Below, one piece after another: positions 1,514 through 45,491 of a stretch of 64,000 nucleotides of DNA (position 1 is its first letter; each line of letters opens with the position of its first letter). Under the pieces are notes generated by a model that did no database searches, had not been told where the DNA came from, and saw nothing but the letters and a program-made list of their open reading frames with translations. Source of the stretch: Gammaproteobacteria bacterium. Lineage in GTDB: Bacteria > Pseudomonadota > Gammaproteobacteria > Eutrophobiales > Eutrophobiaceae. The translations under genes were made by a program, and so were the position numbers. Location: positions 544,001 through 608,000 of the forward strand of contig OZ250183.1 of NCBI GenBank assembly GCA_965238225.1, read 5' to 3'.

Positions 1514-1930
1514 TTATTTATTGTCACTAGAGTCGGATTTGTCTAGGTCAATCGAGATTGAATTAATGCAATAACGTAAGCCGGTTGGCTGTGGCCCATC
1601 TTTAAATACATGCCCAAGATGAGCATCGCAGGTATTGCACATTACTTCTACCCGTTGCACCCCATGACTGGTATCAATTTCTGTTTTTACCGCACCTTCA
1701 TTTATTGGTTTAAAATAACTTGGCCAGCCTGAACCAGAATCGTATTTTGCTTCAGAACTAAACAAGGAATTACCGCAACAGGAACATACATAAATGCCCT
1801 TATCTTTGCAGTCATAATATTTTCCAGTAAAGGCAGGCTCTGTTCCTTTTTGTCTGCAAACGGAAACTTGTTCTGGAGTGAGTTTCTGACGCCATTCTTT
1901 TTCAGTTTTATCAACACGATTTTTAATCAT
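1514..1930 (-). CDS. msrB: Peptide-methionine (R)-S-oxide reductase
   Basis: [27 protein letters not shown] and RYCINS motifs. Confidence 0.97.
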
Positions 1931-2006
1931 GAAATTATACCTTTTGTTATTAACCTCTCAAGCTAAGTAGATGTAGATTTATAACTGATCTCAATTAAGG
2001 GTACTA

Positions 2007-2381
2007 TCATCTTGGTAAAAAGTAATTTCTTTTTGCTCTTTTGCAGGCATTATCGCGCATCATTTCATTGTAACTATTTCGTTCTTTAGAATAGGCATCA
2101 GACCAGGTTTGGCAAACCTCTCTATTTATTCTTTGCGCATTAGTTTCTCTCTCTTGATATCTTTTGCGTTGTTTAAGTTGAGATTTTCTTTTCTCTTGTT
2201 GTAATGCAAGATTTCTTTCCAATTCTGCAGCTGTGCGTTCCAGCGCAAGCGATGCTTGTTCAAGTGCAATCTTGGCTTCATATTCAATCCAATATTTAAA
2301 AACTGCACCAGCAGATAAGTTTGCAATAAAAACTGACAAAAGTACTGTAAAGAATATTTTTTTATAGCTTATTCCTTCCAT
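2007..2381 (-). CDS. Integron cassette gene: hypothetical membrane-anchored coiled-coil protein
   Basis: Starts ~30 bp after the attC core GTTATAT (2417-2411); N-terminal TM segment, coiled coil, two C-terminal Cys; no downstream attC seen. Confidence 0.7.
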   Translation of the reverse strand: MEGISYKKIFFTVLLSVFIANLSAGAVFKYWIEYEAKIALEQASLALERTAAELERNLALQQEKRKSQLKQRKRYQERETNAQRINREVCQTWSDAYSKERNSYNEMMRDNACKRAKRNYFLPR

Positions 2382-2410
2382 ACTATTTAATTCTCATTTT
2401 TTATGGTGGC

Positions 2411-2493
2411 ATATAACGCCCGCCTCAGCGGCACCAAAAAGCAGTGGCAGTCCAGCGCAGCTTGCTGCGCGATTGTGCGCAAACTTGTTATGC
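2411..2493 (-). other. attC site (chimeric, 83 bp)
   Basis: - strand GCATAAC-AAGTTTGCGCAC...GCCGCTGAGGCGGGC-GTTATAT; TAA of the upstream gene lies inside R''; left and right arms do not pair. Confidence 0.8.
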
Positions 2494-2764
2494 GGCGTCA
2501 TGTAGTTTTTCTAATATCTTTACGGTTTTAAAACGATATTTCCAAGATAAGTAAATACCGCCTACTAAGGTAACCCACCAAAAAAAGTAAGCACCACCTT
2601 TTGTCCTCGTTAGATCTACGTAAAAGTCAAAAACCATTGTGTCATTTATATCGCTACCAAATAACCCCCCTTGAAACAAAAGAGCTATCGTTTAGAAAGA
2701 GGATAGCGACAATGATTAGAGAACTTAGCCCCCAGCTAATATATCTTAATATTTTAGTGCTCAT
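2488..2764 (-). pseudogene. Integron cassette gene, small two-TM membrane protein, frameshifted at a G6 tract
   Basis: AAGGA RBS and ATG at 2764 (MSTKILRY...); removing one G from AGGGGGG (~2665-2670) joins it to ...GLFGSDIND...LEKLHDAA-stop. Confidence 0.7.
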
Positions 2765-2784
2765 ATCTTTCCTTATTTTAAAAA

Positions 2785-2844
2785 ATATAACGTCTTGCTC
2801 ATCGGCGCAGCTTTTTGCGCGTCCGCTGGAGCTATTTGTTAGCC
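2785..2844 (-). other. attC site (canonical, 60 bp)
   Basis: GGCTAAC AAATA GCTCCAGC GGACGCGCAAAAAGCTGCGCC GATGAGC AAGAC GTTATAT: R'', L'' with extra base, L' and R' all recognisable. Confidence 0.92.
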
Positions 2845-2849
2845 ATTTT

Positions 2850-3134
2850 TTATTGATGATCATTAAGCCATTGCTGTACGAGGTGATCATTTTTAGGACC
2901 CCACTGTGTGCAAATTGCATAGCAAAAACCATTCCGTATGAATTCAAACTTCCATGTCCAGCGATTGACACCATCACGAGATTTTACTGCTTGCCTTTTT
3001 GTTGCTTGATTTTCAGTTGAAGGCACTTTGATAAATAGAGGGAAACCAATTCCAAAAAGGTCTTTTGATGTGGGTTTATTACATAGTTGTTCTAGCTCAT
3101 GGTCTGCGATGGATTTCGCAGCAGACGAGATACT
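2850..3134 (-). pseudogene. Degraded cassette gene (95-codon open frame without a start codon)
   Basis: SISSAAKSIADHELEQLCNKPTSKDLFGIGFPLF...YAICTQWGPKNDHLVQQWLNDHQ-stop ends 5 nt before R'' GGCTAAC; cassette start GTTAGCC (3308-3302) is complementary to that R''. Confidence 0.6.
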
Positions 3135-3301
3135 TTATTGTTGTTCTATTTACTTCATAAGAAGGGCCGAGCCTAGGAATTTCAGGTTGCTGAATCAATA
3201 ACGACCGTTTGTGGGCCATGTCTGCGATTTTAGGAATTTCAATAGTTGGTCATTGATCCTTTATTTTTTTCGAAAAAATCAAGTGTAAATTCTGTTTTTA
3301 T

Positions 3302-3345
3302 GGCTAACTATTAGTAGACATCCTAATATACTATAAAATACCACA
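3302..3345 (-). other. attI-like recombination site inside the cassette array
   Basis: - strand ...TGGTATTTTATAGTATATTAGGATGTCTACTAATA-GTTAGCC: R core plus a degenerate L box and no attC palindrome. Confidence 0.4.
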
Positions 3346-3368
3346 TGCCTTCACCGTTCTCTTTAGCG

Positions 3369-3426
3369 GCCTAACCTTTGAATTCAGCGAATTGCATAAG
3401 CAGTCGACTGGAATGATTTGTTAGCT
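3369..3426 (-). other. attC site of the nirK cassette (58 bp)
   Basis: AGCTAAC AAATC ATTCCAGT CGACTGCTTATGCAATTC GCTGAAT TCAAAG GTTAGGC; begins 4 nt after the nirK stop. Confidence 0.88.
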
Positions 3427-3430
3427 GTTT

Positions 3431-4546
3431 TTAGTTTTTGATAGGGCTAGGCTTTTTAACCTGCTCCATCAAATCATTATTCCATTTACCTTTAACTTGA
3501 ACATGTGCCACACCACCGAGTATGAATGCCTGAATTAAATCATGATTTAAATAGGCATATAAACCTGGTTGTTTAAAGGTGTAGATAGCGGCGACTGCCT
3601 CGCCACCATTCACATGCCAAGTTTCTCTATCAACAGTTGGGGTGTTTCTAAACGAACCACCTGGCCAAACTAAATCCCCATGACCACCTATTAGATGAAT
3701 GCGGGAATCTTCATTAGCTTGTGAATGAATAAATAAAACCGTTTCGCCCACTTTAGCTTTCATTGCATTTTTACCCGTTAAGGCACCTTTTTTACCGTTA
3801 TAAGTTACATGAGTTGGTACCAATCCACGCATAACTTTTAGGGTGTCGCCAAAAGGCTCTAGTGCATTTGAATATCGTTTATATTTACCATTTTCATCTT
3901 GTGGAATATACCAACCCTGCTCACCAATGTAATAGGCTCTATCATAAGTAACATTTTTACCTTTATTGTCTTTTAGTCCATCTTTTGGCAAAATCATAAT
4001 TGCCCCATACATTCCTGAAACTACGTGATAAGGTATCATAAGCCCACCTGGCGCACAGTGGTAAACATAAGTGCCTGGTTTGTCTGCCTTAAAACGAAGA
4101 ACTACTTGCTCACCTGGGGATACTTTAGTCAAAGCCCCGCCACCAAGAGCACCAGTTGAGGCGTGAAAATCAATGTTGTGCAGCAATAAATTGGTTTTGG
4201 GATTTTTGAGTGTTAATTCAACATAATCACCTTCATGCACGACCATGATTGGTCCTGGATTAGTGCCATTAAAAGTCATTGCTTGGACAAAAACACTTGG
4301 TTCAATTTCAATTTCTTTTTCTTCAATTATCATTTCCATTTCAATAATTCTAGGTTTACCAGAATATTTTTGTTGATGTTTGGGTAGAAAAGGTGGCACA
4401 ACTAGGATTTGTTTCACTCGCTCCAAACCTTTGATATTTGATTGAACGCCAATATCAGCAATATAAGGTTTCGAATTTTCACCAGAAAATAATGATGATG
4501 AAAATAACATTGACGCACATAGCAAACTTATTTTTAAATTTTTCAT
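3431..4546 (-). CDS. nirK: Copper-containing nitrite reductase, carried as an integron cassette
   Basis: [32 protein letters not shown] and YLNH motifs supply type-1 and type-2 Cu ligands plus catalytic Asp/His; N-terminal signal peptide; GGAG RBS. Confidence 0.96.
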
Positions 4547-4633
4547 TTTATTTCTCCAAAGCCCTCAATAAAAAAACAGTTAGATGTGAGGACAGCCACA
4601 TAACTTGTTATTAGATTAGATGAGTTAACTAAC

Positions 4634-4725
4634 ACCTAACGTTGTGTTAAGGGGCGCAAGCCGCATCGCGATGCAGCTTTACTGCGTCCAGTGCCGAAGG
4701 CGCTCAGTTGATTGACTTGTTAAAC
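4634..4725 (-). other. attC site (chimeric, 92 bp) between the TIR and nirK cassettes
   Basis: GTTTAAC-AAGTCAATCAACTGAGCGCCTTCGGCACTGGACGCAG...GCGCCCCTTAACACAAC-GTTAGGT; R'' GTTTAAC is complementary to the TIR cassette start GTTAAAC. Confidence 0.85.
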
Positions 4726-4758
4726 GTTTTTCTTGCCACGTGCCAATGGAATGCTAGC

Positions 4759-5516
4759 CTATTTGTCTCTTTTCTTTTCATGCATTACGCCTTGGATCAC
4801 TACCTGCTTGTTTGTTGGTGAAGTGACCTCGACCAAAAAAGGAAAACCGGGAACAGTATTTCCATCTACGCCAATAAATTGCGCATTGTAGGTTTTGCCA
4901 TCGCTTAAGGGTATTATATTTTCGTGAAAATTAGTGGTAAACATATTACCAGATTTATATTGAAATTCGACATCATCTTTTTCCATGTTGGTTAGAAACA
5001 TATAGTGCGATACGGGCTCTAAGTAATGTTCAGCATGAATTTCAACGAATGTTTATTGGAATCATCCTCAGTAAATTGACATGCTTTAAGATTTGAAAAC
5101 TGTTGAGAATCGAGGTTGAAGGTATTGTGCCCAGATAGAACATCTACCATTTGGCGAATGGCGACTTCGAAGCCATTGTTAAATAGGTCTATGTTGAGAT
5201 TTTGCATTAGTATAGGTGGCATCAAACAATCATCAAGTCTGACAGGTATTATTTTAATATCGCCGTTTACCTTTTTCATTAAAGCATTGTGCCACTCTAG
5301 CTTGACCATTTCGCTCTGAAGGCTATTTCTGGAGACAAAGAGAAAAAAAAGCTTAGAGTCACCAAGCCCTTCATTCATTTTGCCTACAATGCTGTTCCCG
5401 GGCTGTATAGACCAAGAATCGTAAAATACATTTTCCTGACCGACAGCATCACGCAATCTTAATGCTACCCGTTCAACTATGGCCTTGTCCCTGTGATTGT
5501 ATGATATGAATATCAA
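4759..5516 (-). pseudogene. TIR-domain cassette gene with C-terminal domain, split by a 1-nt frameshift near 5053
   Basis: IFISYNHRDK, VFYDSWSIQPGNSI and VKLEW TIR motifs; adding one A at AATAAACA joins 5019..5516 to ...FVEIHAEHYLEPVSHYMFL of 4759..5001. Confidence 0.8.
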
Positions 5517-5539
5517 GGTGCTTTCTCCTTGGCGTGTAC

Positions 5540-5556
5540 GTTTAACGCCGTATTCA
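5540..5556 (-). other. Right half of an attC site (R' core) truncated by deletion
   Basis: - strand TGAATACGGC-GTTAAAC directly abuts the intI remnant. Confidence 0.6.
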
Positions 5557-5565
5557 TTTTTGGTG

Positions 5566-5723
5566 CATGTTTTGCGGAGTTTCTTTTGCTACGCACCTTT
5601 TAGAGACAGGCTATGACATTCGTACGATTCAAGATTTATAGGGCATAAGAATGTAGAACCCACAATGATTTACACCCATATACTAAAATCTGGCGGGCAA
5701 GGTGCTCAAAGTCCATTAGACAA
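5566..5723 (+). pseudogene. intI: Integron integrase C-terminal remnant
   Basis: [50 protein letters not shown]: tyrosine-recombinase box II with the IntI-typical GYDIRT and SPLD end; two frameshifts; 5' portion missing. Confidence 0.9.
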
Positions 5724-5730
5724 TACTTCG

Positions 5731-5910
5731 ATGAATTTTTCAAATACTGAATTTGCGTTAATCTGGCTGATTTTTATTTGGACTGGTTTTGTACGTGCAG
5801 GTTTGGGTTTGCCATTAATGTTGTTAATTGGTGCTAACCCTATTTATTGGTTGCCTATTATTAGCATTCATTTGTTGTTTTTTCATCCCTCACTTTGTTT
5901 AAGTCTTTAG
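5731..5910 (+). pseudogene. N-terminal remnant of a TauE/SafE (TSUP) family transporter
   Basis: [32 protein letters not shown] resembles the TSUP start GFVRxGLGFGGA with an internal deletion; frameshift, then truncation. Confidence 0.5.
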
Positions 5911-6113
5911 TTGGCTGTGCCTATTTTCAGTAATATCAGGATATCTTGTGCGCAGCTTTGACTAAAGCGCACATAGGAAATACCTGTGGCATTTCGATTT
6001 CTTTCGATTTTAGTTGCAGATCGCTTTGCATATGTTTAGCGTTATCCTTATCCAAAACAGGACTAACATTCAATGCAGTGTTGCCCACATTAATGAATAA
6101 GATAGAATAAATT

Positions 6114-8885
6114 ATGGATACGGAAATTAGACATTCTATTGAGCAGGAATTCACCATTGTGACGCCAACCAAGCGTCTTAGTCGAGCGTTACGTAAGCAA
6201 TACATCTCAAAGCAGCTATCAGAGCAAAAGAAAACTTGGGAGACACCAGATATTCTGCCTTGGGCTGTGTGGATATCGCGTATCTGGGATGATTTTACAA
6301 CGCAACAAGACTCAGCCCCCATGTTACTTAAGCCGCAACAAAGAAAATGGGTCTGGCAAAAGATTGTCGCTGAATCCAGCATTGCTAAGGAATTTTTGCA
6401 ACCTGCTGCTGTTTACCACTTAGCCTATGATGCTTGGAAAACCATGTGCCAATGGCAATTAGATATATTTCCAGAAGGTCTTTGGCTTAATAAAGATAAT
6501 CTTGCTTTTAAGTCATGGGTTACAACCTTTCAACAACAGTGTAAAAAACATAATTGGTTGGATATCGCCAGTCTCGAAGGGTATTTATTAAACGATGTCT
6601 CACAATGGGCAGCATATAAAGCCGAAAAAATTCATCTGTTTGGATTTGATGAACTGACACCAGTTCAAGAAGCCTTGCTTAAAGCAATGCAACAAGAAGG
6701 TTGTAAGATTAAACAAGATGAAATTAAACAGACCGTTTACGCTCGCAATACAAATAAAACTGTAAATCTAAATACAGTAATTGTAAGGCGAGCCTATGCA
6801 GACACAAGGCATGAAATAAAAGCTATTGCATATTGGTTAAGAGAACAGCTAAGTTTAGATAGCAGTGCTTCCATAGGTGTTGTTGTTCCAGATCTGGAAA
6901 ATCTGCGCGCAGACATCGAAAATATTTTTGATGATGTACTCACACCTTGCAATCTATTTGCAACCGACAGCGAGATAAATAACGCTCGTCCTTATAATTT
7001 TTCTCTAGGAAAACCCTTGTCAGATTATCCAGTAATACATACTGCTTTTGAAATTCTTGGGTTGGAAAAAAAGATCATCTGTTTAGAAGATCTAGGTGCT
7101 TTATTACGCTCGCCGTTTCTGGGCGGAGCAGAAACAGAAATGATTGCCCGTGCCGAACTAGATGCGTATTTAAAAGAGAAGGGGGAGCCAGAGGTATCTC
7201 TCACTATTTTTCAAAAATATTTAGAGAAAAATGAATTATGGTCAAAGCAGTGTCCGCAATTCATCGCATCATTACAAAAATGGCATGAGGTTCTTCAGCG
7301 ACAAGCAGAAAAACAAACTTGTATAGAATGGATTAAATCCTTCATTGACCTATTAAATACATTTGCTTGGCCTGGTGAACGCAATAAACAAGGAGATGAA
7401 TTGCAAACCATAGAAACATGGAGAGGATTATTCGATCAATTTGCGTCTTTGGATCTGGTATCGGGTAAATTAACCTATCATGGCGCACTGTCACTATTAC
7501 AAAGTCTGGCACGTGAGCAAATCTATCAAGTAGAGTCAGATGAAGTCCCGGTTCAGATCATGGGCTTGCTCGAAGCCTCTGGCTTGCAGTTTGACAAGCT
7601 CTGGGTCATGGGTCTGCATGAAGAAAAATGGCCATTAATGGCTAGGGCTAATCCTTTTCTGCCAGTAAAATTGCAAAGAGAGAATAATATGCCTCACGCT
7701 TCTGCTGAGCGTGAGCTGGAATACGCACGCGGGGTAACGTCGCGTTTAGAGGCATCGGCAAACGAAGTATTTTTCAGTTCACCTTTAAATGAAGCCGGAA
7801 GAGCATTAAAACCGAGCCCTTTGTTAAAACATTTGCCATTGCAGAAAATAGAACAATCTTCGTATTCTGATTATGCAGAGATGATTTTCGACTCCAGTAA
7901 AATGGAATATTTTTATGATGATGTGGCACCTGAAGTTAAAGAATCAAAAGTGGGCGGCGGCACGACTTTATTTAAGGATCAGGCTGCTTGCCCATTTCGT
8001 GCCTTTGCAAAACATCGTCTTGGTGCCAAGCCGTTGGCTAAAGTAGATATTGGTTTAAGCGCGATACAGCGCGGTCAGTTAGTCCATGAGTGTTTGCAAT
8101 TATTTTGGGAGAAAATTAGCACTCATGAAGAATTAATAGGGTTATCAGATGATGCGCTGCAATTAAATATTAATCAGTGTGTTGCCAAGGTTGTTAAACA
8201 TTTTCAAGCAAAACATCTATTTATGGTGACTAGGCGATTTATGTTGATCGAACAAGGCAGGCTAGAAAAGATGATGCATGAATGGTTATCATTGGAAAAA
8301 TGTCGCCAACCTTTCACTGTTGTTGAAAGAGAACAAGAACACGCTTTCACCATTGAAGGTTTAAAGATTCAAACCCGCGTCGATCGTATTGATCAACTCC
8401 CCGACGGTAGTTTTATTATAATCGACTATAAAACTGGCATGTTGTCCTCACTAGCAAAATGCTGGATAGATGAGCGTCCTGATGAACCACAATTGCCGCT
8501 CTATGCCGTTAAAGCGGAGGGTAATATTGCCGCTGTGGTCTTTGCTCATATAAAACCGGGCGAAATGAAATTTGTTGGCTTGGTTGACGATGTTTATGCC
8601 CAAACCACAAGCGATGATGCAAGTGCAAAGGCAAGTCAAGCATTAATTCCAGGAGTACAAACATTAAAACAAAATAGAGCCATTAAAGAATTTCCTGATT
8701 GGGAAAGTTTATTTCTATTCTGGAAAAAGCGCCTACAAACTCTTGCAGAGAATTATCGCAAAGGAGATGCGCATGTTGATCCACATAAGGGAAATAATAC
8801 CTGTAGATATTGCGGTCTAGAAACCTTGTGTCGCATTGATGAGATTGGTAAACCACCTATTTACTTATCGGACGATGACGAGTGA
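6114..8885 (+). CDS. AddB/RexB-like DNA repair subunit: inactive helicase fold plus PD-(D/E)xK nuclease with Fe-S cysteines
   Basis: QAACPFR, RVDRID, IIDYKTG, PQLPLYA and CRYCGLETLCR motifs; overlaps the downstream helicase. Confidence 0.85.
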   Translation: MDTEIRHSIEQEFTIVTPTKRLSRALRKQYISKQLSEQKKTWETPDILPWAVWISRIWDDFTTQQDSAPMLLKPQQRKWVWQKIVAESSIAKEFLQPAAVYHLAYDAWKTMCQWQLDIFPEGLWLNKDNLAFKSWVTTFQQQCKKHNWLDIASLEGYLLNDVSQWAAYKAEKIHLFGFDELTPVQEALLKAMQQEGCKIKQDEIKQTVYARNTNKTVNLNTVIVRRAYADTRHEIKAIAYWLREQLSLDSSASIGVVVPDLENLRADIENIFDDVLTPCNLFATDSEINNARPYNFSLGKPLSDYPVIHTAFEILGLEKKIICLEDLGALLRSPFLGGAETEMIARAELDAYLKEKGEPEVSLTIFQKYLEKNELWSKQCPQFIASLQKWHEVLQRQAEKQTCIEWIKSFIDLLNTFAWPGERNKQGDELQTIETWRGLFDQFASLDLVSGKLTYHGALSLLQSLAREQIYQVESDEVPVQIMGLLEASGLQFDKLWVMGLHEEKWPLMARANPFLPVKLQRENNMPHASAERELEYARGVTSRLEASANEVFFSSPLNEAGRALKPSPLLKHLPLQKIEQSSYSDYAEMIFDSSKMEYFYDDVAPEVKESKVGGGTTLFKDQAACPFRAFAKHRLGAKPLAKVDIGLSAIQRGQLVHECLQLFWEKISTHEELIGLSDDALQLNINQCVAKVVKHFQAKHLFMVTRRFMLIEQGRLEKMMHEWLSLEKCRQPFTVVEREQEHAFTIEGLKIQTRVDRIDQLPDGSFIIIDYKTGMLSSLAKCWIDERPDEPQLPLYAVKAEGNIAAVVFAHIKPGEMKFVGLVDDVYAQTTSDDASAKASQALIPGVQTLKQNRAIKEFPDWESLFLFWKKRLQTLAENYRKGDAHVDPHKGNNTCRYCGLETLCRIDEIGKPPIYLSDDDE

Positions 8886-45425: not shown

Positions 45426-45491
45426 AGTTAATGTCTGAACTAAGGGACAGTTGGAGGTGTTCGGATGCTCTACTTAAGCGCTTAATTAGGC
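45426..45491 (-). other. Degenerate attC site (66 bp)
   Basis: GCCTAAT TAAGC GCTTAAGT...CCTTAGT TCAGAC ATTAACT; L boxes pair, AAC/GTT changed to AAT/ATT. Confidence 0.55.

Follow-up and report, generated by a model that had tools for sequence, protein, structure and literature searches.

A copper nitrite reductase gene as a cassette in a decayed chromosomal integron of a small-genome marine gammaproteobacterium

A stretch of 64,000 nucleotides from a marine gammaproteobacterium with a small genome (1.72 Mb; GenBank assembly GCA_965238225.1, contig OZ250183.1, positions 544,001 to 608,000 of the forward strand; hereafter the window, whose own numbering we use) contains an intact gene for a copper-containing nitrite reductase, nirK, that is organized as an integron gene cassette. 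A sequence-only reading of the window had proposed as much, and three findings now bear it out: a strong attC site follows the gene, the segment that holds both is an insertion relative to related genomes, and an 86%-identical nirK occurs in a second array. The account that we consider probable is that the segment 1952-6095 is a decayed chromosomal integron, that its second cassette carries a promoterless nirK that was captured, moved and then fixed in place, and that the gene serves as a solitary nitrite reductase.

The open reading frame (ORF) of nirK (Table 1) runs for 371 codons without interruption to a TAA stop at 3433..3431. Its product scores 460.5 bits against the NCBIfam equivalog TIGR02376 (cut-off 296.3), covering model positions 2-325/326, and contains the Pfam domains Cu-oxidase_3 (residues 75-188) and Cu-oxidase (residues 204-354), that is, two cupredoxin domains. 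The best solved structures are class-I copper nitrite reductases (E about 4e-139), and five motifs, HNIDFH (123), YHCAP (162), PYHVVSGM (172), HLIGGHGD (284) and YLNHDL (332), are all identical to the aligned residues of chain 7p2f_A; they hold what we take to be the His, Cys, His and Met ligands of the type-1 copper, the three His ligands of the type-2 copper, and the catalytic Asp and His. The predicted product is a class-I copper nitrite reductase, and the earlier description of an intact protein of 371 amino acids with all of its copper ligands stands. So does that of its export signal: the N-terminus, MKNLK and then a hydrophobic stretch with no twin arginine, looks Sec-type when read by eye rather than by a prediction tool.

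The cassette is defined chiefly by the attC at its 3' end, whose R'' (AGCTAAC, 3426..3420) begins 4 nt past the TAA stop of nirK and is followed by a 5-nt spacer, an L stem with an unpaired top-strand C, a 6-nt spacer and R' (GTTAGGC). Its 5' half is nearly identical to that of an attC in a genome of the same genus (G010), in which a full-length intI is followed by a single cassette. A rule-based scan for consensus R boxes and an L stem placed the nirK attC on both strands, returned scattered chance matches and missed most of the attCs of relatives, and repeat finding in the arrays of relatives gave no repeat family. Since neither the rule-based scan nor folding energies discriminated, covariance models were built from real integrons. 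A pattern drawn from the common 5' half retrieved 12 well-formed attCs from genomes of the host's family, whose alignment contains two helices supported by compensatory changes: 79% of its cells are paired, a share that 0 of 500 shuffles reached. The model made from these 12 sites (R1) recovered arrays of more sites in relatives; a second model (R2) comprises 42 attCs from the integrons of relatives and no sequence of the window. Several of the training arrays lie directly beside full-length IntI genes (L031 in G010, L066 in G011 and L067 in G109).

When R2 is applied, the match to the nirK attC spans the full length of the model, with E-values of 4.8e-9 in the 64-kb window and 1.3e-7 genome-wide. 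Over both strands of the window only four matches have E<=10, and three of these fall within one 2-kb stretch of the minus strand (2785-4725), namely the nirK attC (47 bits), the attC of the third cassette (42.8 bits) and the element just upstream of nirK (21.5 bits); the whole 1.72-Mb genome has eight. The attC coordinates, the 58-nt length and the cassette of about 1265 bp that had been read by eye agree exactly with both our own reading and the R2 matches.

Support for the 5' boundary is moderate. There, R' of the upstream element (GTTAGGT, 4640..4634 on the minus strand) supplies the G|TTRRRY junction at which the nirK cassette starts, and the element as a whole (4634-4725) has R2 E-values of 0.0009 in 14 kb, 0.008 in the 64-kb window and 0.22 genome-wide. 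Outside the 20 nt that the search pattern fixes, the tail of the element can be aligned with seven family members in other genomes, at scores that 0 of 500 shuffles reached for six of them and 1 of 500 for the seventh. (The raw count for this second search pattern, 27 matches against 31 for its reversed control, is meaningless, and only the subset whose tails align was used.) Judged by this alignment, the element belongs to a second attC family, in partly decayed form; extra bases and a poor L' arm occur in the 3' third of the element.

The three attCs share the minus strand with the nirK ORF, the single ORF of its cassette, and all diverge from intI. Both the common orientation and the divergence had been recognized earlier; what had been called intI, however, is only a C-terminal remnant. 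It matches TIGR02249 in two frames, at positions 267-287 (25.4 bits, with one TAG) and 285-314/315 (27.9 bits), and aligns by tblastn with residues 280-327 of the G010 IntI. No match to intact IntI in the 1.72-Mb genome exceeds the 265-bit cut-off. An attI is not recognisable at the array, although no attI model was applied, and the first cassette abuts the intI remnant where attI should lie; a GTTRRRY-type core at this proximal end, GTTAAAC, is without support from R2 and may be the junction left by deletion of attI and most of intI. With three attCs on one strand and no intact IntI, the locus is, by its sequence, a decayed chromosomal integron and not a working one: it corresponds to a CALIN, a cluster of attC sites lacking an integron integrase (the definition as quoted in an excerpt of PMC11434368), with an intI pseudogene. 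Elsewhere in the genus, IntI above the cut-off occurs in four of the ten other genomes, which indicates that integrons are active in this group.

Comparison with relatives shows that the whole segment is an insertion. The flanking genes, msrB and an addB-like gene, are neighbours about 0.3-1.2 kb apart (289 to ~1200 bp) in three of the four genomes of the genus that were examined (L028, L029 and L030), and blastn homology of the window to these three stops at ~1951 and resumes at ~6096. A NirK match was obtained in only two of the ten other genomes of the genus (identity 72% and 63%), and the two fall in different clades of the NirK tree. The alternative that the sequence-only reading had itself raised, a resident nirK around which cassettes merely landed, does not fit these data, because the relatives have msrB and the addB-like gene without the segment between them. 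Two of the relatives have a gene of ~1 kb, missing from the window, between msrB and the addB-like gene (L029:2808-3970; L028:10829-12041), so the site varies among members of the genus even where no integron is present.

The NirKs nearest to that of the window (86% identity) come instead from two metagenome-assembled genomes (MAGs) labelled Cycloclasticus (L084 and L085). Together with the window they form a clade in the NirK tree (Shimodaira-Hasegawa-like approximate likelihood ratio test, SH-aLRT, 91) inside a nine-row clade with sulfur-oxidiser symbionts (SH-aLRT 100). Their AddB-like proteins are only 33-34% identical to that of the window (34% in G150, the genome of L085), against 58-65% within the genus, so the hosts that share this nirK are distant.

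In G150, nirK (86% identical in amino acids, 82% in nucleotides) occupies the distal end of an array on the minus strand that contains six strong attCs. This array terminates in the C-terminal remnant of an intI, interrupted by stops, a full-length IntI being encoded elsewhere in the genome, and it has nirK alone in common with the array of the window, the chromosomal flanks being different. Just before the G150 nirK stands a duplicate, 86% identical, of an attC that scores 31.5 bits. The duplication covers ~170 nt (L085:1880-2050 and 3781-3957), the attC together with ~100 nt upstream of it, and R'' is mutated in the second copy, which stands directly before nirK.

A different mode of entry seems to us somewhat unlikely, namely that nirK was not inserted by the integrase as a single cassette but came as part of the entire array, or of a still larger block, through for instance homologous recombination or a genomic island. 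It is true that relatives lack all 4.1 kb at this site, including the intI remnant, and that both nirK arrays end in similarly truncated intI remnants. Yet the two arrays have only nirK in common and occupy different chromosomal sites, and the nirK attC is of a type common in the host's family, whereas the nearest relatives of the gene are in distant hosts. Arrival as a block would, in any case, still take nirK as a cassette.

Evidence for nirK cassettes in further loci is sparser. A GTTAGGT core stands 50-88 nt before the nirK ATG in the window, L084, L085 and L008/L186; within 220 nt upstream it occurs in 6 of 165 NirK loci, where by our own estimate ~2.5 would be expected by chance, and this count alone is weak. 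A metagenomic nirK that is 64% identical (L235, next to pabB) has, starting 5 nt past its TAG stop, an attC of 26 bits that is oriented like the gene. This unit of nirK and attC is flanked by a ~30-nt direct repeat (L235:1085-1125 and 2385-2510), and past the attC there is sequence resembling another, diverged copy of the upstream gene's 3' end, a duplication that integrase recombination would not produce. Among 88 genome loci with NirK homologues attC matches were confined to L085, and among 80 metagenome loci there were six at E<=5; neither the weak attC-like sequences around the L217 nirK (10.3 and 8.1 bits) nor the partial motifs downstream of nirK in L008 and L249 were significant. Judging from these loci, nirK cassettes exist beyond the genome of the window but are rare among those sampled, and R2, being family-specific, may undercount them.

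Cassette and resident copies of nirK also differ in what lies upstream. A TTGAY-N4-RTCAA box, which we take to be of FNR/NnrR type, precedes nirK in 60 of 165 loci, including 9 of the 13 with >=80% identity, but was not found upstream of nirK in the window, L084 or L085. Because these cassette copies are without the box, capture would also rewire regulation, and expression of a cassette nirK would follow its position in the array and not oxygen or NO. The resident nirK genes of sulfur-oxidiser symbionts and related MAGs (L086, L087, L089, L090, L135, L179-L181 and L184) have a conserved TTGAC/T-N4-G/ATCAA palindrome ~60-110 nt upstream, by its sequence probably an FNR/NnrR-type site.

The gene is equally isolated at the level of the genome. 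Profile searches returned one COX1-family match (531.7 bits), no NorB-type oxidase and no globin, other NO sinks not having been searched for; NarG was not found, and NapA-like matches reach 34.8 and 29.7 bits against a cut-off of 930. A search for NnrS was blank, but it was blank in control genomes as well. The nitrate reductase and NO reductase genes that would accompany nirK in a denitrification cluster were therefore not found, so that nirK stands alone here and a role in full denitrification is unsupported; the earlier statement that neither nor genes nor an FNR/NnrR box adjoin nirK holds, and for the NorB-type oxidase it extends to the whole genome. One cupredoxin is encoded, at G000 1204687-1204926, and is a candidate electron donor. 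The single COX1-family oxidase, with no second heme-copper oxidase such as a cbb3 type found, is an unusual companion for NirK, a low-oxygen enzyme.

A rival explanation is that nirK, although a true cassette, is a silent fossil, unexpressed and intact only for lack of time to decay. Several features would suit it: intI is a remnant, at least two neighbouring cassettes have genes that are broken in the assembly, nirK has no promoter-like site directly upstream of it, the native FNR-type box is missing, and the partner genes of denitrification were not found. Against these stands the ratio of nonsynonymous to synonymous substitution rates (dN/dS) between nirK and its two closest homologues (L084 and L085), which at 0.08-0.09 is as low as that of resident copies among themselves (0.05-0.09), albeit averaged over a long history. 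Moreover, a short-read contig confirms the nirK ORF letter for letter, a promoter-like site (10/12 matches) lies on the same strand ~370 nt upstream, and a candidate donor is present in the cupredoxin. We therefore regard a silent fossil as unlikely, and continue to favour a nirK that was fixed in place and serves as a solitary nitrite reductase.

Several observations nevertheless weigh against the account that we favour. With neither an intact IntI nor a recognisable attI in the genome, mobility is historical at best. The upstream attC is marginal genome-wide and its L' arm pairs poorly; as DNA, neither it (z about -0.5) nor the nirK attC (z -0.44) folds better than shuffles, and only the element at 2785-2844 (z -2.3 and -3.0) and the junction at 5500-5575 (z -3.2) stand out in single-strand folding. 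Both covariance models descend from a pattern of the 5' half of the window's own attC, so that its high score is in part ascertainment; the independent support lies in the 3' half of the site and in the bona fide integron context of the training sites. As for other loci, the best attC candidate after nirK in L085 has 11.3 bits and lies 280 nt downstream, which does not establish one and the same cassette unit in both arrays; L084 has GTTAGGT upstream of nirK but no scorable attC at the locus, and an attC is in cassette position at just 1 of the 88 genome loci (L085) and 1 of the 80 metagenome loci (L235). Finally, a weak scan found no promoter-like site between the upstream attC and nirK (4546-4725, minus strand), and the region has just as many promoter-like sites as would be expected of shuffled sequence. 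That nirK is resident or otherwise acquired and its flanking elements chance hairpins or unrelated repeats is nonetheless very improbable: the unremarkable folding of the two elements, the genome-wide weakness of the upstream one and a non-discriminating first scan would allow it, but the 3' element reaches 47 bits (E about 1e-7 genome-wide), three same-strand matches lie within 2 kb by an intI remnant, the segment is an insertion, and nirK recurs in another array.

The history that would best account for the locus begins with the capture of nirK as a cassette, its native FNR-type promoter being left behind. Integrase-mediated attC recombination would then have carried the cassette from one marine gammaproteobacterium to another, distant one, and the cassette would have entered the lineage of the window either in this way or together with the array. 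Loss of intI and attI would have fixed it in place, movable only by an integrase acting in trans. Transcription would presumably be by read-through from array DNA upstream, and NirK, exported by its Sec-type signal peptide, would, as its family membership predicts, reduce nitrite to NO in the periplasm with electrons from the genome's single cupredoxin or a c-type cytochrome. Its likeliest role would be in nitrite detoxification or as a small auxiliary electron sink at low oxygen, not in denitrification.

From the shared cassette gene in remote hosts we infer that integrons can carry nirK between distant bacteria. A broader proposition, which we put forward tentatively, is that integrons are a recurrent vehicle of nirK in marine gammaproteobacteria and that a cassette form free of FNR-type control spread between distant hosts; in the sampled population of the organism, nirK may perhaps be fixed while its neighbours vary, which would imply selection for a solitary, NO-forming nitrite reductase in a genome without another denitrification step.

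The type of integron seen here is already known; what is new is nirK as its cargo. CALIN is reportedly a category that Cury et al. (2016) defined for IntegronFinder. Like CALINs and other decayed sedentary chromosomal integrons, the window has a same-strand attC array with promoterless ORFs between the sites and no functional integrase nearby, and its intI pseudogene marks descent from a complete integron. Cassette genes are usually short and of unknown, toxin-antitoxin, defence or resistance function, whereas the cargo here is a 1.1-kb gene for a respiratory-type metalloenzyme. The literature that we searched, which did not cover supplementary cassette catalogues, yielded no report of nirK or of a nitrite reductase in an integron cassette. 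The case also shows that integron cassettes can carry the gene of a complete periplasmic redox enzyme, one dependent on copper loading and on an electron donor of the host.

Complete integrons of relatives (L031 in G010, L066 in G011, L067 in G109) share with the window their attC families, with 5' halves near-identical to that of the nirK attC, and the divergence of intI and cassettes; they differ in having a full-length IntI (296-682 bits, tblastn) and, in the stretches examined, no nirK. The one in G010 (L031:1650-3050) is a complete one-cassette integron with two small overlapping ORFs, and it lies directly upstream of an apparent RNase P RNA gene and a mraZ-rsmH cell-division cluster (names by sequence reading).

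The distribution of nirK is patchy and does not follow species trees. Plasmids are one known vehicle: 198 plasmid records have a NirK match (e.g., in Phaeobacter, Sinorhizobium and Rhizobium), and there too the gene is on a mobile replicon, but identity to the window is <=66% and the vehicle is a large plasmid, predicted to be non-mobilizable in 138 of 198, and not a site-specific cassette. SUP05-type symbionts and related MAGs have resident nirK genes in the same nine-row clade, at 80-84% identity to that of the window, but with the TTGAY-N4-RTCAA box upstream and with neither a GTTAGGT core nor an attC. In Methylophaga nitratireducenticrescens GP59, nirK is said to have been brought by Mu-type prophages (PMC5918138, in excerpt). 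This too is a strain-specific gain through a mobile element in a marine gammaproteobacterium; the differences are the prophage vehicle and, according to an abstract, the other denitrification genes of the host. Beside plasmids and prophages as described there, a cassette nirK would add a site-specific route for a single gene. Because nirK stands alone in this genome, caution is also due when nirK counts in metagenomes are read as 'denitrifiers'.

Table 1. Features of the insertion and its flanks, in window coordinates (R1 and R2, covariance models of attC)
Feature	Coordinates	Strand	Basis
msrB, conserved chromosomal flank, low side	1514..1930	-	TIGR00357 183 bits
Inserted segment of ~4.1 kb holding the decayed integron	1952..6095	.	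blastn vs L028-L030
ORF of 124 aa, distal end of insertion	2007..2381	-	no Pfam/NCBIfam match
Weak attC-like element, only R boxes and spacers fit	2411..2493	-	R2 with filters off, 10.8 bits, E 0.37 in 14 kb
ORF of 63 aa, cargo of putative fourth cassette	2488..2679	-	no Pfam/NCBIfam match
attC of third cassette	2785..2844	-	R2 42.8 bits, E 5e-8; DNA fold z = -3.0
Remnant of gene for 163-169-aa protein, third cassette, in-frame stops upstream	2853..3146	-	phmmer, tblastn, frame translation
attC of nirK cassette, 58 nt	3369..3426	-	R1 51.4 bits; R2 47 bits
nirK cassette, 1265 nt	3375..4639	-	TTAGGT after G of upstream R' to G of own R'
nirK, intact copper-containing nitrite reductase precursor, 371 aa	3431..4546	-	ORF list, TIGR02376, Pfam, structure alignment
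attC of first (TIR) cassette, 92 nt, second attC family, 3' third diverged	4634..4725	-	R2 21.5 bits
TIR-domain gene, first cassette, split into 165-aa and 80-aa ORFs by 5 extra nt at ~5053-5066	4723..5516	-	TIR_2 92 bits
GTTAAAC, GTTRRRY-type core at proximal array end	5541..5547	-	sequence reading
intI pseudogene remnant, last ~48 codons, divergent from cassettes	5582..5724	+	TIGR02249, tblastn
addB-like gene, conserved chromosomal flank, high side	6114..8885	+	58-65% identical in 4/5 same-genus genomes searched

At least two of the other cassettes hold genes that the assembly shows as broken. In the first, the 80-aa ORF corresponds to the C-terminal part of 262-aa TIR proteins (up to 79% identity), and residues 1-150 and 154-262 of one such protein (P0121) align to the gene in two different frames. 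The sole short-read contig that crosses the break omits 5 letters at 5052, which would restore the frame, and the break may be strain-specific or an assembly error. In the third cassette, a 58-aa ORF aligns by phmmer to the C-terminal ends of longer proteins, and tblastn with four of these (P0132, P0134, P0143 and P0145) recovers only residues 67/72 to 160/164, the C-terminal 60%. The weak attC-like element at 2411-2493 was not recovered by R2 at default filters in the 64-kb window, and a search with R2 of 1952-2007 found no attC after the 124-aa ORF. It had been argued that selection maintains nirK because three of the other four cassettes are broken; two are broken in this assembly and the break in the TIR gene is perhaps not real, which weakens the argument.

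Short-read contigs from the likely source sample were compared with the assembly over 1800-6300. Across 3275-4722, which includes the nirK ORF, the contig is identical to the assembly (0 differences). Elsewhere, 5 letters are missing at 5557 as at 5052, an extra T follows 2845, positions 3190-3258 are replaced by 2 letters, and one joint connects 2381 to 2805. Contigs continue into other sequence at 4722 (in both runs), 3432 and 3305, and these alternative continuations hint at array variants in the sample. In run X1 the depth is 28.9 for the nirK contig, 11.5 for the contig on the TIR side (~40% of the flanks) and 25-28 for the flanks, with similar ratios in run X2, and such contig depths cannot rank genes.

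Apart from the array, the fourth R2 match in the window (45426-45491 on the minus strand, 15.3 bits, E 0.26) is far from it and probably due to chance, and the same may be true of a solitary match elsewhere in the genome that follows a 354-aa membrane-protein ORF (G000:C1:392750-392810(+), 21.4 bits). Three further solitary attC matches also stand after ORFs: one of 29.2 bits after an ORF of 150 aa (G000:C1:841901-841956(-)), one of 37.9 bits after an ORF of 87 aa (G000:C1:1580093-1580149(+)), and one of 43.4 bits after an ORF of 113 aa (G000:C1:1131054-1131110(+)).

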